Positions 9,715 through 25,038 of a stretch of DNA of 28,427 bases are shown one piece after another. The translations under genes and the position numbers were made by a program. Numbering within the stretch: the stretch's first letter is position 1; each line of letters starts with the position of its first letter. Source of the DNA: Candidatus Bathyarchaeota archaeon (lineage in GTDB: Archaea > Thermoproteota > Bathyarchaeia > Bathyarchaeales > Bathyarchaeaceae); contig JAGLRI010000001.1 of assembly GCA_023136395.1 (NCBI GenBank), positions 1 through 28,427 on the forward strand, given 5' to 3'. The notes under the pieces were generated by a model that did not search any database, was not told the origin of the DNA, and worked only from the letters and a program-made list of their open reading frames with translations.

Positions 9715-10239
9715 CTAGATCCTATCCGTTTTTGTTAAGTCCCTCAGCCTTTCAATACCACCAATCTCCTCAATTAACTGACTCACGGGCGTTGGTACAA
9801 GGTCCCTCCATTTTTCCCCATTCACCATTCTTTTCCGTATCTCAGTTGCAGATAATATTTTGCGTTTGTGAAAAGGCACTGGTTTAACTTCGAAGCCACC
9901 ATCAATGAATAACCGGCGAGTTAGCGGTTCGTTGGTATAAATCATATGGAATTTTGGTGTATAACCTACAATCTGAGCGACCCACAACATATGGATGTGT
10001 ACATCAGGTACTGGAATTATCCAGCATCTTGACATATCAATTCCCTCTACCTCCAAGGTTCGTTTAATCATCGTAACACGTTCACCCGTAGTGAATGGAT
10101 TATCTAATGTATGACTGTATTGAGAACTTCCAACCACTACCACGAGCTCGTCAACAGTTCCTAAAATATCCTTTACGGCTTTCAAGTGCCCTATATGAAA
10201 TGGTTGGAACCTGCCTACGAAAATTGCACGTTTTACCAT
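9715..10239 (-). CDS. nadM: Nicotinamide-nucleotide adenylyltransferase (archaeal NadM)
   Basis: 174 aa; FVGRFQPFHIGH (HxGH), SSQYSHTLDNPFT.GER, SATEIRKRM. Confidence 0.95.
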   Translation of the reverse strand: MVKRAIFVGRFQPFHIGHLKAVKDILGTVDELVVVVGSSQYSHTLDNPFTTGERVTMIKRTLEVEGIDMSRCWIIPVPDVHIHMLWVAQIVGYTPKFHMIYTNEPLTRRLFIDGGFEVKPVPFHKRKILSATEIRKRMVNGEKWRDLVPTPVSQLIEEIGGIERLRDLTKTDRI

Positions 10240-13994: not shown

Positions 13995-14465
13995 TCAATT
14001 TAACATTTTCTTTGATTCACTTAGAGTCTTTTTTATTCGTTTCCAATGAGCCCCTTGCCAGTATATTTGCTCACAACTGGAACACGCCCAAAACTTGTCA
14101 TAATTGGACAAAGTTCTCTTTGGAACTTTACTTACAACTTGATCTTTAAGAATGGGTTTAATTTTTGTATTACATTTTGGACAACGAGAAATAGTGACAT
14201 CAATTTCAAGATTAAGGTTAAATCGCTTTGCCAAGTTAGTGAGTTTTTCAGCCTTTGTTGTTCCCTCAACAACGAAGACAGTTACTCCCTGAGTCATGCA
14301 TTGTTGGTAGAGTTCAATGTCGCGAGTAAGTAAGATGCGGTGTTCCGTCTTTGCGATCTGGATTAACTGCTTATCATCTAAGAAACTGGAGTATTTTATG
14401 TCATACCCTAACATTCGTAGCCATCTAGTAAGTTTACCTAGCATTCCATCCGCTACGAACTTCAC
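13995..14465 (-). CDS. Mut7-C RNase (PIN-like plus Zn ribbon, DUF82/COG1656)
   Basis: 156 aa; FVADGMLGKLTRWLRMLGYD, LLTRD, RCPKCN, FWAC..C.QIYWQG.H. Confidence 0.92.
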   Translation of the reverse strand: MKFVADGMLGKLTRWLRMLGYDIKYSSFLDDKQLIQIAKTEHRILLTRDIELYQQCMTQGVTVFVVEGTTKAEKLTNLAKRFNLNLEIDVTISRCPKCNTKIKPILKDQVVSKVPKRTLSNYDKFWACSSCEQIYWQGAHWKRIKKTLSESKKMLN

Positions 14466-14607
14466 TTATGCCACTCCATGATTTGCCACTAATATGTGAT
14501 TTTTTATATCATATTATTATATCATCTCTAAAGGAAAGATAAAAATATAAACTCGAAATTTAAGGGGGGTAACCGATTTATTGATGATACTATTGCGATT
14601 CTTTATA

Positions 14608-14661
14608 TGTACAAGCCAAGCATCTTTCTATGTACAATAATGTACACATAAGATTTAATAT
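14608..14661 (+). promoter_or_regulatory. trpB2 promoter with TRP boxes
   Basis: TGTACA at 14608, 14631 and 14641; BRE-like CATAAGA 14647-14653; TATA TTTAATAT 14654-14661; a CGTACA variant follows at 14670. Confidence 0.8.
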
Positions 14662-14716
14662 AACCTATACGTACAAATAAGGGAACAATATTACAATTTT
14701 AATAAGGTGAAGAGAT

Positions 14717-16102
14717 GTGCCATCTAGAAAAATATTATTAGACGAAGAGGAAATGCCTAAACAATGGTACTGCATACTGCCTGATCTACCTAAACCACTA
14801 CCCCCAACGATAGAACCAGCAAAGAAGGCGCCGGGACCAGGAATCGTTCCCTTAATATTTCCTAAAGAGATCATTGCCCAAGAGTTTAGCAAAGACAGAT
14901 GGGTAGATATACCTGAAGAGGTAAGAGAAATATACCGGATCTGGAGACCTACACCATTATACCGGGCAGTTGGATTAGAAAAAGCTTTGAAGACTCCCGC
15001 TAAGATATATTACAAGTACGAAGGCACTAGCCCTTCCGGAAGTCATAAGCCAAATACCGCCGTTGCACAAGCTTATTACAACATGAAAGAGGGTAAAGAG
15101 CGTATAGCTACAGAAACGGGAGCAGGCCAATGGGGTTCAGCTATAGCCTTCGGTTGCATGACTTTCAAGCTCGATTGCACTGTATACATGGTTAGAGTAA
15201 GCTACGATCAGAAACCTTATAGAAGAGTAATGATGGAGCTTTGGGATGCTAAGGTGCATCCAAGCCCAAGCACAAAAACAGAAGCTGGCAGAAAAATTTT
15301 GAAAGAAGATCCCGAGAGCACTGGAAGCTTAGGAATAGCTATCAGCGAAGCCGTCGAGGATGCTCTTACTCATGAAGAAGCGAACTATGGTATAGGCAGT
15401 GTTTTCAACCATGTCCTCTTGCATCAAACCGTGGTTGGATTAGAAACCAAGAAGCAGCTTGAAAAAGTCGAAGACTATCCTGACGTAATAGTTGGGTGCA
15501 TTGGTGGAGGGAGCAGTTTCTCAGGTCTCTTCACGCCCTTTTATTATGATAAAGTTTCAGGAAAAGCGCCTAAGGATACCCGGTTTTTAGCTACTGAAGC
15601 TACGGCTTGTCCCTCTATCACTAAGGGAGAATATATGTTTGATCACGGTGACACAGCAAGAATTACCCCTTTGATCAAGATGCATACCTTAGGCCACGAC
15701 TTTATTCCACCACCAATTCATGCTGGAGGCTTACGTTACCATGGTATAGCCCCCATTTTATCGATGCTGGCACAAGAAAAGAAGATAGAAACGCGAGCGT
15801 ACGATCAAGTAGAGGTTTTCGATGCTGCCAGACTCTTTGCTCAAACTGAAGGGTTGGTGTCAGCTCCCGAGCCATCTCACGCCATTAAGGGTGCCATTGA
15901 CGAAGCACTAAGATGTAAGGAGACCGGGGAGGAAAAAACTATTCTTTTCATGCTTTGTGGTCATGGTCATTTTGATATGCAAGCTTTTGATGACTACCTT
16001 CAAGGTAAACTTTTACCATATGAGTATCCAGAGGAAGAAGTTCAGAAATCCATGAAAAGGTTGAGAGAACTGTATCCATGGATTGATACCCTACCTTACT
16101 AA
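14717..16102 (+). CDS. trpB2: Tryptophan synthase beta chain type 2 (TrpB2, stand-alone)
   Basis: 461 aa; [61 protein letters not shown]; GGTGA SD at 14706-14710. Confidence 0.96.
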
Positions 16103-16264
16103 CCACTATATTTATCACAGCTAAGATCATTCCATAAGGAGCTTCCAAAATCCTTAAACATTAATGAAAAACTTGTACATTTGCATGCATTATTATTCAA
16201 CTTCATTCATCATTAGAAAATTAAGATTGCCAAAAAGTACCATTATTTTCTTTTGACTAAAAAA

Positions 16265-16293
16265 TTTATATCTTGTTTGTACATAATGGTACA
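16265..16293 (+). promoter_or_regulatory. trpY promoter with TRP-box pair downstream of TATA
   Basis: TATA TTTATATC 16265-16272; TGTACA 16278-16283, N4 spacer, GGTACA 16288-16293; an extra TGTACA lies at 16174. Confidence 0.75.
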
Positions 16294-16306
16294 TATTTGT
16301 GATATT

Positions 16307-16810
16307 ATGTGGAACAAAGTGATGGAGTGCTTAAAGGGTTATCCGGAGCGCCTTTTAGTAGCTAGGGTACTCATAGAAAACGGTCTAAGTGTGAAAGAGG
16401 GTAAAATCTATTGTAATGATATTGAGCTTCCACCGGTCAGAATAGGTCGTGTTGCAAAGGTTGATAGAAGAACAGTAACTGAAACAATTAAAACCATCGA
16501 AAAAAAATCCGAGTTGAAAATTATTTTTAGGCATATAAAATCAGCTGGGCATTCGTTGAAAGAAGTTGCGAAATATTTTAACTTAGGTGTAGTGGAAATA
16601 ACTCCGGAAAATGCAAAAATGCCGGGGATTCTAGCAAAAACGGCTTCACTTATAGCTGAGAGGAATATAAGTATCCGACAAGCGATAGTGGATGATCCAG
16701 AACTTTCACCAGAACCAAGACTTACAGTGATTACTGAGACAAAAATTCCTGGGGAACTCATATCTGCTTTTTTAAAGATTGAGGGCGTTGCTAAGGTTTC
16801 AGTGTATTAG
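16307..16810 (+). CDS. trpY: Tryptophan-sensing transcription regulator TrpY (COG2150, HTH plus ACT)
   Basis: From ATG 16307: MW...GYP.R..VA..LIE.GL...GKIYC.D.E......R.A.VDRRTV; PGILA..A.LIA...ISIRQA..DDPEL...PRLT.ITET.IPG..I..FLKI.GV..VS.Y. The first 18 aa of the listed ORF (16253) are promoter sequence. Confidence 0.88.
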   Translation: MWNKVMECLKGYPERLLVARVLIENGLSVKEGKIYCNDIELPPVRIGRVAKVDRRTVTETIKTIEKKSELKIIFRHIKSAGHSLKEVAKYFNLGVVEITPENAKMPGILAKTASLIAERNISIRQAIVDDPELSPEPRLTVITETKIPGELISAFLKIEGVAKVSVY

Positions 16811-16849
16811 TCTAGATTTTTCATGTTAAATCTTTTTAATTTTAATAAA

Positions 16850-16880
16850 TGTACGTTTTTGTACACGTAAGCTTTAAATA
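16850..16880 (+). promoter_or_regulatory. trpE operon promoter with TRP-box pair
   Basis: TGTACG 16850-16855, N4 spacer, TGTACA 16860-16865, BRE-like CGTAAGC 16866-16872, TATA TTTAAATA 16873-16880. A T-rich tract precedes it after the trpY stop. Confidence 0.8.
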
Positions 16881-16927
16881 TGACGTGTGAGTTCATATTT
16901 TTCCTTCACCATCAAGAGGTATTGAGT

Positions 16928-16951
16928 ATGGGGTATTGTATTTGGCGATAA
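16928..16951 (+). CDS. Putative trp leader peptide MGYCIWR*
   Basis: ATG GGG TAT TGT ATT TGG CGA TAA with GAGGT SD at 16916-16920; ends 4 nt before the trpE TTG. Confidence 0.5.
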   Translation: MGYCIWR

Positions 16952-16955
16952 TGCG

Positions 16956-18350
16956 TTGAGCAAGCGATTTCAACAGAATAGCAATTTTCAACTGAAGTTT
17001 AAAAAATTACCCTTTTTGTATTCGCCTTCTGAGATCTTCTTAAGAATTTATAAGTGTTATGAACATGCTTACCTCCTTGAGTCAATAGAAGGTCCAAAAA
17101 AATTAGCTCAGTATTCGTTTATTGGATTTGCGCCTAAATTGAGGCTAAAGGTAAAAGATGGCGAAATAATACTCCAAGATATCAAACTAGACGAAGAAAT
17201 TAGGATAAAAAACGAAGACCCTCTTCATATAGCAAGGAAGATTCTAGGAAGAAGGTCTCCCATTGCGAGATTTAGATTTATTGGTGGTGCTGTAGGATAT
17301 ATTTCCTATGATGCAATACGATACTGGGAAAGGCTTCCTGATTTTACTGTTGATGCCTTGCGTTTTCCCGATATTGAGTTGGGCATATTTGATGATGGCG
17401 TTGTGTTCGATCATAGTAGAAGGGAGGTTTTCTATTATTATTGGAATGAAGATCGTTTCGATGAGCTGAATAAGTTATTAAAGGAACCTGTTGAATCTGA
17501 GGCGTTATACTTTACAAATCCCAAGGTAAACGTCTCGAAGGAAAGGTTTGAGGAATCAGTGCAGAGAGCTAAGGCATATATAGCATCTGGCGACATCTTT
17601 CAGGTTGTTCTCTCAAAAAGATACGAGTTTGTTATCAAGGGTGACTTGACGAGTTTCTATATGTCCCTCCGAAAGGTAAACCCCTCTCCCTATATGTATT
17701 TCTTAAAAATGGGTGACCGCCAAATCGTTGGGTCAAGCCCCGAAATGCTTTTTAGAGTAGATAATGGTTTTGTGGAGACTTTTCCCATTGCTGGTACAAG
17801 ACCATACGTAAAAAATCCCATTGAAAATGAGGCATTAAAAAAGGAGTTATTGTCAGATCCCAAGGAACGTGCTGAACACGTAATGCTTGTAGATTTAGCT
17901 AGAAACGATGTTGGTCGAGTCTCAGAATTTGGAAGCGTTTCTGTTCCCGAATTCATGAAAGTTCACCAATACAGCCACGTTCAACACATAGTATCAAGGG
18001 TAGTTGGTAAACTGAAGGGGGGGTGCGATTGCTTTGACGCATTGAGAGCTGTTTTTCCAGCAGGTACAGTTTCAGGAGCACCCAAAGTAAGGGCTATGGA
18101 GATCATCGAAGAATCTGAGCCTACAAAGAGAGGACCTTACGCGGGGGCTGTTGGCTACTTCTCCCATAATGGAAACGCAGACTTCGCCATTACCATAAGA
18201 ACCCTCGTTGCAAAAGGAAAAAAATGTTACATTCAGGTTGGAGGTGGTATAGTAGCTGACTCTGTTCCTGAGAGAGAGTGGTTTGAAACAGAGCATAAAG
18301 CTCGGGCTCTACTGAAAGCTCTAGAACTATGTGGAGAAAACCAACAGTGA
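16956..18350 (+). CDS. trpE: Anthranilate synthase component I
   Basis: 464 aa; LLES and NPSPYM (Trp feedback site), GDIFQVVLS, PIAGTR, KERAEHVMLVDLARND, FPAGTVSGAPK. The TTG start has no evident SD. Confidence 0.96.
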   Translation: MSKRFQQNSNFQLKFKKLPFLYSPSEIFLRIYKCYEHAYLLESIEGPKKLAQYSFIGFAPKLRLKVKDGEIILQDIKLDEEIRIKNEDPLHIARKILGRRSPIARFRFIGGAVGYISYDAIRYWERLPDFTVDALRFPDIELGIFDDGVVFDHSRREVFYYYWNEDRFDELNKLLKEPVESEALYFTNPKVNVSKERFEESVQRAKAYIASGDIFQVVLSKRYEFVIKGDLTSFYMSLRKVNPSPYMYFLKMGDRQIVGSSPEMLFRVDNGFVETFPIAGTRPYVKNPIENEALKKELLSDPKERAEHVMLVDLARNDVGRVSEFGSVSVPEFMKVHQYSHVQHIVSRVVGKLKGGCDCFDALRAVFPAGTVSGAPKVRAMEIIEESEPTKRGPYAGAVGYFSHNGNADFAITIRTLVAKGKKCYIQVGGGIVADSVPEREWFETEHKARALLKALELCGENQQ

Positions 18351-18928
18351 AGGTTCTTGTCATCGACAATTACGATTCGTTTGTTTATAATCTTGTTCAA
18401 TACATTGGAGAACAAGGGGGAATCCCTCTGGTCTACAGAAATGATAAACTAACCCTGAAACAAGCAGAGAATTTTAAACCAGACAGGATTGTTATATCTC
18501 CAGGTCCCGGTACACCAGAAGATGTCCGGTATTTTGGGATTTGCTCCGATATCCTACAACACCTAAGTTGTAAGATTCCAACCTTAGGCGTTTGCCTTGG
18601 TCACCAAGGAATAGTTTCAACCTTTGGGGGAAAAATAATACCCGCAAAGAGGCTGATGCACGGTAAAACAAGCTTAATAAAACATGATGCTCAAGGCGTC
18701 TTTAAAAGCTTGAAAAATCCTATCGTGGCTACTCGCTACCACTCTCTCGTTGGGGAAAGAACGTCAATGCCTTCATGCCTTAAAATAACTGCTGAGTCAC
18801 TCGACGATGGAGAAATCATGGGAGTTCGTCACATAGTATATCCAATTGAGGGGATCCAATTTCATCCCGAGTCGATTTTAACTGAGATGGGAAAGAAACT
18901 CATAAAGAATTTTCTTGAAAGGAGATGA
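18347..18928 (+). CDS. trpG: Anthranilate synthase component II (glutamine amidotransferase)
   Basis: IDNYDSF, ISPGPG, GVCLGHQ, RYHSL, QFHPES. The likely start is GTG 18347 overlapping the trpE stop (GTGA), with GGAG at 18333-18336. Confidence 0.95.
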   Translation: MKVLVIDNYDSFVYNLVQYIGEQGGIPLVYRNDKLTLKQAENFKPDRIVISPGPGTPEDVRYFGICSDILQHLSCKIPTLGVCLGHQGIVSTFGGKIIPAKRLMHGKTSLIKHDAQGVFKSLKNPIVATRYHSLVGERTSMPSCLKITAESLDDGEIMGVRHIVYPIEGIQFHPESILTEMGKKLIKNFLERR

Positions 18929-18934
18929 AGGAAG

Positions 18935-19996
18935 ATGATAAGGGAAGGCATACGAAAGCTGATTGCAGGTATGACCCTTGCGTATAATGAATCAAGAGAG
19001 ATAATGAACGAGATAATGTCTGGTAATGCAACGCAAGCACAAATTGGCGCATTCTTAACGGCCTTGAGAATGAATGGAGAAACGATCGATGAGATCTCTG
19101 CACTTGCTTCAGTAATGAAGGAATTTTGTTACCAAATACATCCTCAAGTAAATGGGCGTCTCGTAGATACTTGCGGAACAGGTGGAGATAAAATAAAAAC
19201 CTTCAACATCAGCACTACTGCTGCCTTCGTTATTGCTGGTGCCAAGGTGTCAGTGGCTAAGCACGGGAATCGATCAGTAACTAGCAAAAGTGGAAGCGCA
19301 GACGTTTTGGAGAAACTCGGTGTTAATCTCAACGCAACACCAAACGTTGTAGAAAGTAGCATCGAGGAGGTTGGAATTGGCTTCATGTTTGCCCCAACAT
19401 TTCATAAGGCTATGAAACATGTTATTGGACCAAGAAGAGAAATAGGAGTGAGAACCGTTTTTAATGTTCTTGGACCCTTGACGAATCCAGCGAACGCAAG
19501 CGCCCAATTATTAGGGGTTTATGATAGAGCATTACTAGAGCCTCTGGCAGGGGTATTAAAGAAACTTGGATGCGAAGAAGCCATGGTCGTGCATGGTCTA
19601 GATGGACTGGACGAAATTTCCACTATTGGTAAAACAGCTATCGCATGGCTAAAGGAGGAAGAAATTAGCTTATTAGAAGTAGTTCCTAAAGACTTTGGCA
19701 TCGAAAAGACAAGACTAGAAGACATCATGGGAACAACACCCGAAAAAAGTGCGGAAATAACATTCAAAATCTTGACTGATCAACACAAGAATGGAGACCC
19801 AAAGAGAGATATTGTATTAGCGAATGCGGCAGCAGGGATTCTACTAGGTGGAAAAGGTAGTGATTTCTGTTATAGCGTCGAATTAGCCTGTGAATCCATC
19901 AAAAGTGGGGCTGCATATAAAAAACTAAAAATGCTTATTGAAGTTGGTGGCGGTGATAAGGCGAGGCTCGAGGAGCTGGAAAATAAATATGGCTGA
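18935..19996 (+). CDS. trpD: Anthranilate phosphoribosyltransferase
   Basis: DTCGTGGD, FNIST, KHGNRS..SKSGSAD, RTVFNVLGPLTNP, GLDEIS. Confidence 0.96.
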   Translation: MIREGIRKLIAGMTLAYNESREIMNEIMSGNATQAQIGAFLTALRMNGETIDEISALASVMKEFCYQIHPQVNGRLVDTCGTGGDKIKTFNISTTAAFVIAGAKVSVAKHGNRSVTSKSGSADVLEKLGVNLNATPNVVESSIEEVGIGFMFAPTFHKAMKHVIGPRREIGVRTVFNVLGPLTNPANASAQLLGVYDRALLEPLAGVLKKLGCEEAMVVHGLDGLDEISTIGKTAIAWLKEEEISLLEVVPKDFGIEKTRLEDIMGTTPEKSAEITFKILTDQHKNGDPKRDIVLANAAAGILLGGKGSDFCYSVELACESIKSGAAYKKLKMLIEVGGGDKARLEELENKYG

Positions 19997-20768
19997 TTTT
20001 CTGGATGTCTTGGGACAAAAAGCACGGAAAAGGGTGAAAGAGGGTTATTATAAAGTCACAAAACAGATAATAGCTCCCACTAAAGGTCTAAAAGAGGCAG
20101 TTCTTGAGTGTAAAAACGCTCCCATAATTAGTGAAATCAAAGTTGCTTCACCAACAATGGGCGTTATCAGAAAAAAAATTGATGTAAATAAAGTTGCCAT
20201 AGCAATGGAAAAGGGTGGAGCAATTGGAATTTCGGTACTAACCGAGCCCAAACATTTCAAAGGATCAATAGATACTTTCATTAAAGTGAGGTCCCAAGTT
20301 GACCTTCCCCTCCTTATGAAAGACATTGTTGTAAACCGAACACAGATTGAGGCTGCAGCAAAAATGGGCGCAAATGCAATCCTTTTAATAGAGGCTCTCT
20401 TCAAACGTGGCTACTGTGATTGCGATGTTCATCGAATGATTGCTGAAGCTCATTCACAAAAACTTGAAGTTTTATTGGAGATTCTTACCGAAGAAGAGTT
20501 CATATCAGCTATAAAAACTGAAGCCGATTTAATCGGTATTAACAATCGTGATTTAAGAACACTTGAAGTAGATCTTGAAGTAACAAGGAGAATCTTGACA
20601 AAAAATTGCATTAATGAAAAGTTAATTGTAAGCGAAAGTGGCATTAAGAGTTCTGCTGACGTCCGCTTTCTCCACGAATGTGGTGCCCACGCTTTCTTAG
20701 TTGGGTCCTCTATCATGAGGAGTAGTAACATCCAAAAAATGGTCAAGGAGCTAGTGTTGGCTCTATGA
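19989..20768 (+). CDS. trpC: Indole-3-glycerol phosphate synthase
   Basis: ISEIKVASP, SVLTEPKHF.GS, LMKD, GINNRDL, SESGI, LVGSSIM. The likely start is ATG 19989 (MADF), overlapping the end of trpD. Confidence 0.95.
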   Translation: MADFLDVLGQKARKRVKEGYYKVTKQIIAPTKGLKEAVLECKNAPIISEIKVASPTMGVIRKKIDVNKVAIAMEKGGAIGISVLTEPKHFKGSIDTFIKVRSQVDLPLLMKDIVVNRTQIEAAAKMGANAILLIEALFKRGYCDCDVHRMIAEAHSQKLEVLLEILTEEEFISAIKTEADLIGINNRDLRTLEVDLEVTRRILTKNCINEKLIVSESGIKSSADVRFLHECGAHAFLVGSSIMRSSNIQKMVKELVLAL

Positions 20769-21415
20769 GTAGAGTAAGAGTGAAAATCTGCGGAATAACA
20801 CGAAAAAAAGATTTAGCAGCGGTTATTGAAGCTGGGGCTGATGCCGTGGGATTCGTTATTGGTGTACCCTCATCACCCAGAAACTTGACGCTCGATGAGG
20901 CAAGAAAAATGATAAAAAATACAATTTTTATCAAGACCGTTGCGGTAACAGTTCCTAATAATCTTGACAAATTAAAAAAGATCCATGAGAATCTAAGGCC
21001 AGATATTCTTCAAATTCACGGTGATAGATTATCTGACTCTATCATTCGAGAAGAGTTACCTAAAACACGTTTAATAAGAGCTGTTCAAGTAACGTCCAAT
21101 GGAAGTATTAAGACTGTTGTTGATGCAGCAAATAGCTTTGACGCTATTCTTTTAGACTCTTATGTTTTGGGTAAGTATGGTGGAACAGGCAAAACTCACG
21201 ACTGGCAACTGGACAAATGCGTTAGAGAAGCCATTCAACCGAAACCGCTAATTCTTGCTGGGGGTTTAAATCCTACCAACATTAAAGACGCCATACGCAT
21301 CGTCCAGCCATATGCTGTTGATGTTTCTAGTGGTGTCGAATCACATCCGGGAATTAAAGACCCAAAAAAAATTTACAAATTTATAAAAAATGTTAAGGAA
21401 GCGGAAATATGTTAA
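20765..21415 (+). CDS. trpF: Phosphoribosylanthranilate isomerase
   Basis: KICGIT, ADAVGFV, QIHG, LLDS, GGTGK..DW, LAGGL.P.N, DVSSGVE; ATGA overlap with trpC. Confidence 0.95.
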
Positions 21416-22608
21416 AATTTAGTCAATATCCAATTGAGGGAAAATATGGAAAATATGGTGGACAATTTGTTCCAGAAACTTTAATGGTTGCCATTAAAGA
21501 ACTGGAAGAAGCCTATAAAAAATCAAAAGTAGATCAAGATTTTCAAAAGAAACTTAAATATTACCTCTCGGAATACGCTGGAAGACCTACGCCATTATAT
21601 TATGCTGAAAATTTAACTAAAAAGATAGGAGGCGCGAAGATCTACCTTAAACGTGAAGATCTCGCACATGGAGGAGCCCACAAGATAAACAACACCATAG
21701 GACAAGCCTTACTTGCAAAAAAGATGGGAAAGAAAAGAGTTATTGCAGAAACGGGTGCCGGACAACACGGGGTCGCTACAGCCATAGCCTGCGCTACTCT
21801 TGGGTTGAAAGCCGAGATCTACATGGGTTCTAAAGACATGAAACGACAAAAGCTCAATGTTTTCAGGATGAAACTTCTTGGCGCAGAGATTCATCAGGTA
21901 GAGTCCGGATCCAAAACTTTAAAAGACGCTATTAATGAAGCCTTGAGGGATTGGGCTACCAACGTTCAGACAACCTATTACCTTATTGGGTCCGTTGTCG
22001 GTCCTCACCCATATCCAATTATTGTTAGAGACCTCCAAAGTGTAATTGGTAACGAAATTATGAAACAGATAATGCTAAAGGAGGAACAACTACCTAGCGC
22101 CTTAATCGCTTGCGTAGGAGGTGGAAGCAACGCCATAGGAACTTTCTACCCATTTCTGGATTATCCATTAGTCAAGATGTATGGTGTTGAAGCAGCCGGT
22201 TTAGGACTCGATTCTAGTAAGCACGCTGCATCACTTTGCGTAGGAGCGGAAGGCGTCTTTCACGGCATGCTAACATATGTACTTCAAGACGAGCATGGAC
22301 AAATACAAACTACACATAGCATCTCTGCAGGACTTGATTATCCAGGAGTCGGACCAGAACATTCCTTCCTCAAGATGAGGGAAAGAGCTCGATACGCTAC
22401 TGCTACGGATGAAGAAGCAGTAAATGCCTTCCTTGAATTATCAAAGAATGAGGGAATAGTCCCAGCGTTGGAACCCGCACATGCCTTGGCTTATGCCATT
22501 AAACTTGCTCATACGATGGGAAGAGACAAAATAATCGTAGTGACCTTGTCTGGAAGGGGTGACAAGGATGCAGAAGTGGTAGCGAAACATCTAGGGGTGA
22601 AGATATGA
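21409..22608 (+). CDS. trpB: Tryptophan synthase beta chain type 1
   Basis: [64 protein letters not shown]. Confidence 0.97.
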
Positions 22609-23426
22609 GAGAAATAGAAAAAATGTTTCTAACTCTGAGGAGACGGAAGGAAGGAGCGCTCATAGCCTATGTCACGGGAGGGGATCCCAAACCAGAATAC
22701 ACCCCTAAAATCGCTGAAGCTTTAATTAAAGGAGGAGCAGACATTATTGAGCTCGGAATCCCCTTTTCAGATCCAATCGCTGATGGCCCAACTATTCAAG
22801 CAGCAACAGTACGAGCGCTGAAGGCAAAAACCACACCGAGGACCGTGTTAAAAATTATTAAGAAAATAAAGGAGAACCATAGTGTACCCATCATAATCCT
22901 CACTTACTACAATCCGATTTACAGGATGGGACTTGAGAATTTCTTCAGATTAGCAAGTAGATACGAACTTGATGGTTTAATCGTTCCGGACCTACCCATA
23001 GAGGAAGCCTACGACTACAAAAAAGTTGCAGAGGAATACGATATAGATACAATCTTCCTAACAGCCCCCTCAACATCACAAAAAAGACTTGAGAAAATAA
23101 TTAGCTACACCTCGGGTTTTCTCTATCTTGTATCCATCTTTGGTGTGACTGGAGCTAGAGAAAAAATTCAAGATCTAACCATCAAACTTATTAAAAAAAC
23201 TCTTCCACTAACAACTGGAAAAATTCCTTTAGCCGTAGGTTTTGGGCTTTCAAAACCAGAACACATAAAAACCGTTATACTAAACGGAGCAGATGGAGCC
23301 ATAGTAGGAAGCAGCTTCGTTAAAATCATAGAAGAAAATCTAGAGAATAGCAAAAAAATGCTTAATAAAATCGAAAATCACACAAAAAAGTTAAAAAAAG
23401 CAACCGTGAAAGAGTGTTCTAATTAA
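22605..23426 (+). CDS. trpA: Tryptophan synthase alpha chain
   Basis: [41 protein letters not shown]; ATGA overlap with trpB. Confidence 0.97.
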
Positions 23427-23433
23427 AATAATC

Positions 23434-23835
23434 CTAAAAACTATTGCTTGCAAGTTTAACTAAGGTATTTGTGTTTAAGACTGCTGGAAGCGCTCTGATT
23501 TTATCGACCTTTTTATTTAGCTCATTTATTGTATAAGCCTGGATTAGGGCAGCAACATCATAATCACCTGATACTTCAAAAATTTTTTCTGAAACCTCTT
23601 TCATTTTCAAGGCTACATTTCTAGTTTCATTGGGATCCGTTTTCACCAGAATTATTCCCTCCACTTCAACTTTTGTTTCAATAGTGAACTTAGTTATTAT
23701 CCCCTGCTCAAGTAACTTCTTTACTCTCATCCTCACTGCTCCTTCAGTTAAGCCAATAATTTCCGCCATTTTCACGTATTTTGTTCGAGAGTCCCGCTTT
23801 AATATTCCAAGGATTTTTTCATCTATTTCGTCCAT
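23434..23835 (-). CDS. lysM: Lrp/AsnC family regulator, LysM-like
   Basis: 133 aa; D.ID.KIL..L..D.R.....A...G..E.AVR.R...L...G.I..FTI HTH, and RAM domain (EVSGDYD...I.....N..VD.IR). Divergent from the lysine operon. The symbol rests on overall resemblance plus context. Confidence 0.75.
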   Translation of the reverse strand: MDEIDEKILGILKRDSRTKYVKMAEIIGLTEGAVRMRVKKLLEQGIITKFTIETKVEVEGIILVKTDPNETRNVALKMKEVSEKIFEVSGDYDVAALIQAYTINELNKKVDKIRALPAVLNTNTLVKLASNSF

Positions 23836-23872
23836 ATGAATTGTTGTTATAAATATGAAAATAAAAACATTG

Positions 23873-23912
23873 CTACGAAAATCGCAGTATGATTAATTTA
23901 CGATTTTCGTAG
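23873..23912. promoter_or_regulatory. Two inverted semi-palindromic operator sites between lysM and dapA
   Basis: CTACGAAAATCGCAG (23873-23887) and TTACGATTTTCGTAG (23898-23912; reverse complement CTACGAAAATCGTAA). Confidence 0.7.
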
Positions 23913-24000
23913 TAAAAATATAAAAAACGAAAGGTTTAAAAGTTCCTAATGTTCTGCTTTCAATAAACCCGTCAATTAATGGAAAGGTGAATATAAGAAA

Positions 24001-25038
24001 ATGAAAGTGTTCAGCGGCTGTTATACTGCACTTGTAACGCCAATGAAGAAGACTTGTGAAGTTGACTACGAAAGCTTACAGAGATTGGTTGAGTTTCAGG
24101 TAAGAGAAGGTGTGCAGGGCATTCTTGCTGTTGGGACTACTGGTGAATGTGCGACGTTAACTTGGGACGAACACGTCAAAGTCATTGAAAAAATACACGA
24201 GGACATCAATGAAAGATGTGAGACAATTGGCGGAACAGGAAGTAACTGCACAGAGGAAGTTATAAACGCCTCAAAAAGCGCGTGGGATTTTGGGGTAAAA
24301 TCCTTGTTGCTTGTAGATCCATATTATAACGGACCAAGCTCCATTGAAATAAGAAAAGAGTACATCGAACCAGTAGCGAAACGATTTCCTGAAGCCGAAA
24401 TTATTCCATACGTGATTCCTGGAAGAACAGGCACCCAACTTTTACCACAAGATTTAGCCATCCTACATTCTGAGTACAAAAATGTAAATACTGTCAAGGA
24501 GGCAACAGGTAACTTAGAAAACATGAAATTAACCAGAAAGTTTTGCGGGAAAAATTTTAACATTCTTTCTGGAGATGATGATAAAACGTATCAAATGATG
24601 ACATCTCCAGAGATCATGTCTAAAGGCGTGGTTTCAGTGGCATCGAACGTCGTCCCTAATGCAGTTCAGAATATGGTTCAAAGCATTCTTGATGGGGACC
24701 TAGACGAAGCTGTTAAGCTTACTAAAGCGCTTAAACCCATGTTTAGAATAGTAACAGTCAAGACAGAGGAAGAAACACCGTTTGGTCCTATGATTTGTAA
24801 AGCCAGAAATCCTCTGCCTTATAAGACTTTAATGAATATTTTGGGAATGTCCACAGGTCCCTGCAAGCAACCATTAGGAAAGATGACAAGGAAGGGAGTG
24901 GAAACTATACTAAATGAAGTGAAAGAGGTCTATGTAAATAATCCCGAGATACTGCAACCAATAGAAGATTTTTTCGATGTTGATATGAGCAACCGCTTGT
25001 ACGAGGAGAAGTTTTGGAAGGAATATTTCTATGATTAG
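24001..25038 (+). CDS. dapA: 4-hydroxy-tetrahydrodipicolinate synthase
   Basis: TALVTP, GTTGE, GTGSN, PYY, PGRTG, catalytic VKEA, LSGDD; extended C-terminus. Confidence 0.9.
   Translation: MKVFSGCYTALVTPMKKTCEVDYESLQRLVEFQVREGVQGILAVGTTGECATLTWDEHVKVIEKIHEDINERCETIGGTGSNCTEEVINASKSAWDFGVKSLLLVDPYYNGPSSIEIRKEYIEPVAKRFPEAEIIPYVIPGRTGTQLLPQDLAILHSEYKNVNTVKEATGNLENMKLTRKFCGKNFNILSGDDDKTYQMMTSPEIMSKGVVSVASNVVPNAVQNMVQSILDGDLDEAVKLTKALKPMFRIVTVKTEEETPFGPMICKARNPLPYKTLMNILGMSTGPCKQPLGKMTRKGVETILNEVKEVYVNNPEILQPIEDFFDVDMSNRLYEEKFWKEYFYD

Follow-up and report, generated by a model that had tools for sequence, protein, structure and literature searches.

The trpB2, trpY and trpE locus

The 28,427-nucleotide stretch of DNA analysed here (the window; contig JAGLRI010000001.1 of assembly GCA_023136395.1, Candidatus Bathyarchaeota) carries a set of tryptophan genes in three units. 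These are trpB2, trpY and the operon trpEGDCFBA, all on the plus strand and arranged in tandem. Each is preceded by a promoter that contains a pair of TGTACA-type boxes. The reading judged probable here is that the three units form a tryptophan regulon of the Bathyarchaeon, in which a TrpY-family protein acts through 16-bp dyads at trpB2, trpY and trpEGDCFBA as a tryptophan-responsive repressor.

The genes are identified by profile matches. trpB2 (14717–16102) begins with GTG behind a Shine–Dalgarno-like GGTGA (14706–14710) and encodes a stand-alone TrpB-like pyridoxal phosphate enzyme; its product matches NF009057 with 706 bits against a cut-off of 366, as well as the Pfam family PALP. trpY (16307–16810) encodes a 167-residue regulator of the TrpY family, with a putative N-terminal DNA-binding part and a C-terminal ACT domain. 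It reaches 193.1 bits against NF053754 (TrpY_fam), above the cut-off of 180, with residues 2–164 aligned to profile positions 1–163. The operon (16944–23426) is counted from the trpE frame at 16944; a conventional open reading frame (ORF) call starts at a TTG at 16956. All seven of its genes have Pfam and NCBIfam matches. A preliminary description of this DNA had named trpB2, trpY and a trpE operon, and these names are borne out; the genes behind trpE are trpGDCFBA.

Three promoters with a common paired element

The window contains seven copies of the hexamer TGTACA, at 9998, 14608, 14631, 14641, 16174, 16278 and 16860. The first copy lies inside a cytidylyltransferase-like (nadM-like) ORF (9715–10239, minus strand). 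The other six fall in the spacers 14466–14716, 16103–16306 and 16811–16955, which precede trpB2, trpY and trpE, respectively, and together make up 600 bp with a GC content of 26–30%. The preliminary description had listed the same six intergenic positions and a single other copy, at 9998 in nadM, and the exact count agrees. It had put the number expected in the spacers at roughly 0.2; the assembly-wide rate of 241 copies in 1,422,836 bp (0.169 per kb) gives 0.10, and the Poisson probability of six or more is 1.4e-9. The assembly comprises 1.42 Mb in 253 contigs with 39% GC and is 81% complete. The window total is unremarkable (seven copies against 4.9 ± 2.3 in shuffled sequences), so that the enrichment concerns the location of the copies and not their overall number.

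Each spacer holds one pair of boxes with a 10-bp period. The pairs are TGTACA-N4-TGTACA ahead of trpB2 (14631–14646), TGTACA-N4-GGTACA ahead of trpY (16278–16293) and TGTACG-N4-TGTACA ahead of trpE (16850–16865), as previously described. They share the core GTAC-N6-GTAC. A genome-wide count of paired boxes had also been proposed in the preliminary description; run on this core, it returns seven copies in the whole assembly, three at the three trp promoters and four within coding sequence. The chance that three of seven land in these 600 bp is 2.6e-9.

The pairs occupy definite positions in the promoters. The putative trpB2 operator, TGTACA-ATAA-TGTACA, is a perfect 16-bp dyad. It is followed by a candidate core promoter (14647–14662) that reads as a sequence like the transcription factor B (TFB) recognition element (BRE), CATAAGA (14647–14653), and a TATA box, TTTAATATA (14654–14662). 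The same layout is found in the conserved trpE promoter, where the putative operator TGTACG-TTTT-TGTACA adjoins a core promoter (16866–16880) made up of the BRE-like CGTAAGC (16866–16872) and the consensus TATA box TTTAAATA (16873–16880). The trpY promoter differs in that its operator follows the TATA box. The box TTTATAT (16265–16271), which agrees with the TTTATAC conserved in 67 related trpY promoters, precedes the putative operator TGTACA-TAAT-GGTACA, and the latter sits between TATA box and ATG, over the expected transcription start. The resulting arrangement, TTTATAT-N6-TGTACA-N4-GGTACA-N13-ATG, is the same as in relatives.

Conservation of the operator

Paired boxes at these same promoters are conserved in many relatives. 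For trpE, 93 related loci were collected and their upstream regions anchored on the TATA box, which yielded 80 distinct promoters with the common consensus ttaAtGTAcatTTtTgTaC.ca.AAG.cTTAAATA; the part ..AAG.cTTAAATA is close to invariant. The dyad stands at a fixed −22 from the TATA start in its strict form in 34 of the 80 promoters, with at most one mismatch in 56 and with at most two in 69. The trpE promoter of the window fits the composite consensus perfectly and is the only perfect composite match in its own genome. None of the 12 related trpE loci that were checked has trpY adjacent to trpE; the dyad is nonetheless kept at trpE. Upstream of trpY, within 110 nucleotides, a dyad with no more than one mismatch occurs in 58 of 80 related loci. 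Its place there is downstream of the TATA box, 13–14 nucleotides from the TATA start and hence over the expected transcription start; of 67 aligned trpY promoters, 11 carry the strict form at this offset and 29 a form with at most one mismatch.

TrpB2 proteins of the relatives fall into two score classes. One, of about 700 bits, usually adjoins trpY; the other, of about 570 bits, belongs to genomes that lack TrpY or is present as a second, unlinked copy. Within 110 nucleotides upstream of the start, the TrpY-linked trpB2 genes show the strict dyad in 28 of 62 cases and, with one mismatch allowed, a dyad in 48, mostly in the form dyad-N8-(C/T)TTAAATA. Upstream of the 570-bit class the count is 0 of 17, which means that the operator travels with the regulator. 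Sites, enrichment, conservation, fixed geometry and co-occurrence with trpY are all direct observations.

These counts bear on the simplest alternative, that the boxes arose by chance or from the composition of AT-rich spacers. The low GC content of the spacers and a whole-window TGTACA count within the shuffle range would suit such an origin; clustering with a probability of about 1e-9, the recurrence of the dyad at the same position in about 80 related promoters and its absence from the control promoters speak against it. The conservation data refute it for practical purposes, and it is given next to no credence here.

The working unit appears to be the 16-bp dyad TGTACA-N4-TGTACA with the core GTAC-N6-GTAC, most likely read by TrpY. 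Among the trpE promoters, six carry GTAT-N6-ATAC and one GCAC-N6-GTGC. Such symmetric variants preserve the dyad and break the palindromes of the individual hexamers, so the pair, and not the single hexamer, looks like the recognized unit. This argues for a single dimer that reads both boxes as one operator. Symmetric half-site changes are listed for the trpE promoters of L090, L101, L103, L107, L114, L126, L166 and L092. A distant TrpY subfamily (36–43% identical; genomes G011, G013, G016, G018, G019 and G025) is accompanied by degenerate right half-sites. Together with the half-site changes, this may reflect co-evolution of regulator and operator. Comparison of the trpE operator with the trpY and trpB2 operators within these genomes is suggestive in G019 only, where a GTAT left half occurs at both, and no claim is drawn from it. 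The population variants listed from four metagenomes, a list that stops sixteen short of the full set, fall beside the GTAC cores and not in them; 16288 G>A, for example, changes GGTACA of the trpY operator to AGTACA and leaves the core intact.

Single boxes and other promoter elements

Several further elements lie near the three operators. A TTTATA directly followed by a single TGTACA (14602–14613, the box at 14608–14613) stands 23 bp upstream of the trpB2 operator and is a possible auxiliary site. Additional upstream GTAC cores occur in some relatives only, so conservation of this box is not established. Seven base pairs downstream of the trpB2 TATA box lies a near-box, CGTACA (14670–14675), which is missing from the preliminary list of boxes; its placement resembles that of the first box of the trpY operator relative to the trpY TATA box, and it may be functional. 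Another single TGTACA (16174–16179) is located 72 bp past the trpB2 stop codon and 104 bp upstream of the trpY operator. It could be auxiliary or due to chance, with about 0.035 copies expected in the 204-bp spacer, and the spacers of L175 and L177, two close relatives of the tandem type, show no counterpart.

The segment 16811–16849, which immediately follows the trpY stop codon and precedes the trpE operator, contains two runs of five T residues (TTTTT). They look like archaeal oligo-T termination signals and would suit separate trpY and trpE transcripts. Downstream of the TATA box, related trpE promoters carry a conserved element, aCatt...GT.t, at +10 to +22 from the TATA start; in the window it is degenerate (16881–16895). 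In 12 of the 80 promoters this element is within two mismatches of a second dyad (within one in three of them), so that the TATA box is flanked on both sides.

TrpY as the probable reader of the operator

The predicted structure of TrpY is consistent with its family assignment. The Pfam ACT match, at 23.6 bits, is under the gathering score of 27. The AlphaFold2 model (pLDDT 89) places a beta-alpha-beta-beta-alpha-beta unit at residues 94–166, behind an N-terminal helical domain, and Foldseek matches the C-terminal half to the ACT domains of IlvN, PGDH and Rel at root mean square deviations (rmsd) of 2.6–3.0 Å. The N-terminal part presumably binds DNA. With the whole chain, Foldseek returns weak matches to Lrp/AsnC proteins (E about 1e-4), and a sequence search of the PDB found no relative of solved structure. 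A homodimer model scores 0.70 against 0.10 for the best control, as a prediction and not a measurement; 21 of 30 proteins solved as one-chain pairs attain this mark, and none of 23 solved as single chains. TrpY is probably a homodimer, which fits a dyad operator.

Co-occurrence was examined in 41 related genomes, with TrpE in 13, TrpY in 21 and TrpB2 in 35. TrpY is present in 12 of the 13 TrpE-positive relatives. It is quite improbable, in our estimate, that the dyads are genuine operators read by another regulator while the TrpY homologue has a different role. A precedent exists in Thermococcus kodakarensis, where the TrpY homologue does not bind the trp promoter and Tar does (PMC6737238). 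In the present lineage, by comparison, the dyad flanks the promoter of trpY itself in most loci, and it tracks trpY, as the 12 of 13 TrpE-positive genomes and the 0 of 17 control promoters indicate. No Tar-type palindrome is found at the three promoters; a single match with two mismatches, inside trpD (19603), is at chance level. The TGTACA boxes also match the TRP-box consensus of the characterized TrpY.

Of the 21 TrpY-positive relatives, nine have no TrpE found with this query, and seven of the nine are 92–100% complete. These seven (G018, G025, G028, G029, G032, G033 and G038) have trpY together with or adjoining a trpB2 of the 700-bit class. Since the TrpY-positive genomes without detected TrpE are mostly of such completeness, the trpY–trpB2 pair is the conserved core of the regulon in the class Bathyarchaeia. 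Probable tryptophan auxotrophs seem to keep the pair, as would suit tryptophan-controlled indole salvage by TrpB2.

Probable repression and its alternatives

The general mechanism of a TrpY repressor at this locus would be as follows. TrpY bound to the trpY operator would cover the expected transcription start, exclude RNA polymerase and thereby repress its own gene. The trpB2 and trpE operators directly abut the BRE, with their ends 7 bp ahead of the TATA box, and tryptophan-loaded TrpY would most likely hinder the assembly of TFB and the TATA-binding protein (TBP) there. TrpY binding may also spread to the additional boxes (14608, 14670 and 16174). Plentiful tryptophan would then turn both the trpB2 and the trpE unit off. 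A near-consensus BRE and TATA box in archaea suits an intrinsically strong promoter under repression. The BRE and TATA box of trpE are near consensus and nearly invariant, so the promoter is presumably strong by itself and negatively controlled. That TrpY binds these sites, that its ligand is tryptophan and that control has this sign are read from family membership and from the Methanothermobacter precedent.

Four points weigh against this account. The relatives behind the conservation counts are not independent, and the statistical weight of those counts is therefore overstated. The single boxes at 14608 and 16174 are without conservation in the close relatives examined. The T. kodakarensis homologue that leaves its trp promoter unbound (PMC6737238) shows that family membership alone is no proof. 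Finally, a BRE-proximal operator at strictly fixed spacing is also the position of an archaeal activator such as Tar, so that control at trpE and trpB2 may equally be positive.

The last point leads to a possible, if tentative, alternative, in which TrpY works in two modes. It would repress its own promoter; at trpE and trpB2 it would recruit or stabilize TFB and TBP and activate transcription when tryptophan is low, with tryptophan releasing or rearranging it. About 70 of the 80 trpE promoters, and the majority of the trpB2 promoters linked to TrpY, keep one invariant distance from operator to BRE and TATA box, and rigid spacing of this kind is expected where two proteins must touch. Tar (TK0271), the trp-operon regulator of T. 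kodakarensis, binds a palindrome just upstream of BRE and TATA box, where the operators of trpE and trpB2 lie in the window. Other known archaeal activators also bind upstream of these elements. Taken in the reverse direction, the trpY promoter shows this same operator-N8-TATA unit. Some relatives with divergent genes form a group in which trpY and trpB2 seem to share one TATA box, flanked by a single operator. Activator-dependent archaeal promoters, however, usually have weak core elements, and those of trpE are near consensus. Overlap of the operator with the margin of the TFB footprint may also be enough to account for the fixed spacing. In addition, the characterized TrpY represses both the trp operon and trpY (PMC6737238); it reportedly represses trpB2 as well.

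A more specific proposal, which is speculative and rather doubtful, makes TrpY a direction-selecting switch on a shared TATA box. Here TrpY, attached to one side of the TATA box, would block transcription toward trpY and, with no change of DNA, contact TFB at the adjoining BRE, so as to activate and not repress trpB2 or trpE when tryptophan is scarce. If true, it would be a dual activator and repressor whose sign is set only by the side of the TATA box on which the operator lies.

A translational leader at trpE

The trpE gene has a second distinctive feature, a translational leader (16916–16951). It consists of a Shine–Dalgarno sequence, GAGGT (16916–16920), an ATG at 16928 and a seven-codon ORF (MGYCIWR, then stop). 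The trpE frame is entered only through a +1 shift at ATT-TGG-C (16940–16946), a Trp codon, after a five-codon leader. Leader layout, frame offset and NTT-TGG site are the same in about 85 of the 93 related trpE loci. The trpE frame lacks a start codon in many related loci, and in the orthologue L106 the leader is fused in frame. Judged from sequence, trpE appears to need a +1 ribosomal frameshift at the Trp codon, which would constitute a second, translational layer of control.

Host and gene order

The DNA belongs to a Bathyarchaeon. Of the 80 trpY loci in the genome collection that are closest to it, nearly all carry the label Bathyarchaeia or Bathyarchaeota, and their TrpY proteins are 64–78% identical. 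The alpha subunit of methyl-coenzyme M reductase (MCR) was not found in the 81%-complete assembly. The preliminary description had called the host apparently non-methanogenic and had proposed a taxonomic placement as a check; the placement by nearest loci and the lack of a detected MCR alpha agree with it. Sequencing runs that hold DNA near-identical to 14400–17400 are metagenomes of cold seeps and marine sediments from several studies.

The tandem order trpB2, trpY, trpE is real. In the Logan collection, contigs from four runs, each of a different study, span the junctions and differ from the window at few positions (X2, 15605–17400; X5, 15083–17400; X7, 15916–16951; X12, 16217–17122), and these, with the flanks in L174, rule out an assembly chimera. 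L174 contains the closest relative of this TrpY (87% identical). Its trpY is followed directly by a lysM-like gene and dapA, with no trp operon and no trpB2. When L174:985–2435 is set against 16307–24100 of the window, the 6.6-kb trp operon sits exactly between conserved flanks; these shared flanks indicate that the operon is an insertion or deletion and not an assembly artefact. Upstream of trpY, L174 has an RDD/zinc-ribbon gene in the place of trpB2. In the window, a LysM-like gene for an Lrp-family regulator also lies beyond the operon (23434–24001), divergent from dapA-dapB-lysC-asd and with paired palindromes in the spacer.

The order is rare and untypical of the lineage. At most of the 80 related trpY loci, trpB2 and trpY diverge, and about a dozen close relatives have the two in tandem. 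No trpE lies within 4 kb downstream of trpY in any of the 80, nor in L175–L177. The preliminary description had spoken of a different wiring of the regulon. This holds for the gene order; the inferred targets are the same three as those of Methanothermobacter TrpY, namely trpY, the trpE operon and trpB2.

Additional candidate targets

The assembly was scanned for further members with strict and one-mismatch dyads and with composite patterns of dyad and TATA box in both orientations. Beyond the three trp promoters, no further intergenic full dyad occurs in the assembled 81%. This is as far as the data go, and the earlier claim of a complete regulon is too strong for an 81%-complete assembly in 253 contigs. 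The best intergenic candidates precede two GNAT acetyltransferase genes, an HflX-like GTPase gene and a DUF6506 gene; none is tryptophan-related and none was accepted. The dyads at the two different GNAT genes have one mismatch each (G000:C22:512 and G000:C157:3818) and lie 92 and 35 nucleotides upstream, respectively, possibly by coincidence.

Comparison with known regulators

The TrpY/TRP-box system of Methanothermobacter thermautotrophicus (Xie and Reeve 2005; Karr et al. 2008; reviewed in PMC6737238) is the closest known counterpart. There, TrpY binds TRP boxes between trpY and trpE, in overlapping promoters, and represses trpY without tryptophan and both units with tryptophan (PMC6737238). 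The two systems share the protein family and the three inferred targets. They also share TGTACA, the TRP-box consensus hexamer, and the expected logic, in which a tryptophan-sensing ACT-domain protein represses its own gene together with biosynthetic genes. According to Karr et al. (2008), trpB2 is reportedly a TrpY target as well, and repression there is said to need further TrpY assembly beyond the boxes. The differences lie mainly in architecture. In Methanothermobacter, trpY is divergent from trpEGCFBAD and trpB2 is located elsewhere; here, trpB2, trpY and trpEGDCFBA are in tandem with three separate promoters, in a Bathyarchaeon and not a methanogen. The missing divergence of trpY and trpE matters little, as it describes the reference locus rather than the mechanism. 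The unit here is clearly a 16-bp dyad set at a fixed position against the BRE, and trpE also appears to need a +1 frameshift at a Trp codon.

Other tryptophan and amino acid regulators are more remote. Tar is an activator and a different protein; it recognizes TGGACA-N8-TGTCCA and also controls the aro and tyr-phe operons (PMC6737238). The Lrp/AsnC proteins (FFRP; LysM, PH0061, Escherichia coli Lrp) have the same design as TrpY, with a small N-terminal DNA-binding domain and a C-terminal beta-alpha-beta-beta-alpha-beta domain that binds amino acids, and they act as oligomers that read promoter-proximal sites. Their domain arrangement, however, does not superpose on that of TrpY (rmsd about 10 Å), and neither Pfam nor NCBIfam reports HTH_AsnC or AsnC_trans_reg in TrpY. 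TrpY is a family of its own, apart from Lrp/AsnC. Bacterial TrpR and the trp operator are unrelated in fold and in transcription machinery, and the resemblance is one of analogy, not homology.

Significance

The kind of system is already known, and the present case is a well-supported but largely ordinary example in an unusual gene order. It adds a new lineage, a fused gene order that is rare, a core module of trpY and trpB2, and an operator model that is sharper and has a fixed geometry. Literature searches turned up no paper on TrpY in Bathyarchaeia. Crenarchaeota are almost entirely without TrpY and Tar homologues (PMC6737238), so that how trp genes are controlled in this region of the archaeal tree had not been settled. 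The locus would extend the only characterized archaeal tryptophan repressor system from methanogens into the Bathyarchaeia, an abundant and uncultured sediment lineage.

The comparative data yield a precise model of a 16-bp dyad operator with symmetrically changing half-sites, and a fixed promoter geometry that can be used to tell activation from repression. The TrpY system and the apparent trpE frameshift would place two stacked layers of tryptophan sensing at one locus. The trpY–trpB2 core suggests that TrpB2 serves in salvage, under control by tryptophan, in organisms without de novo synthesis of this amino acid.

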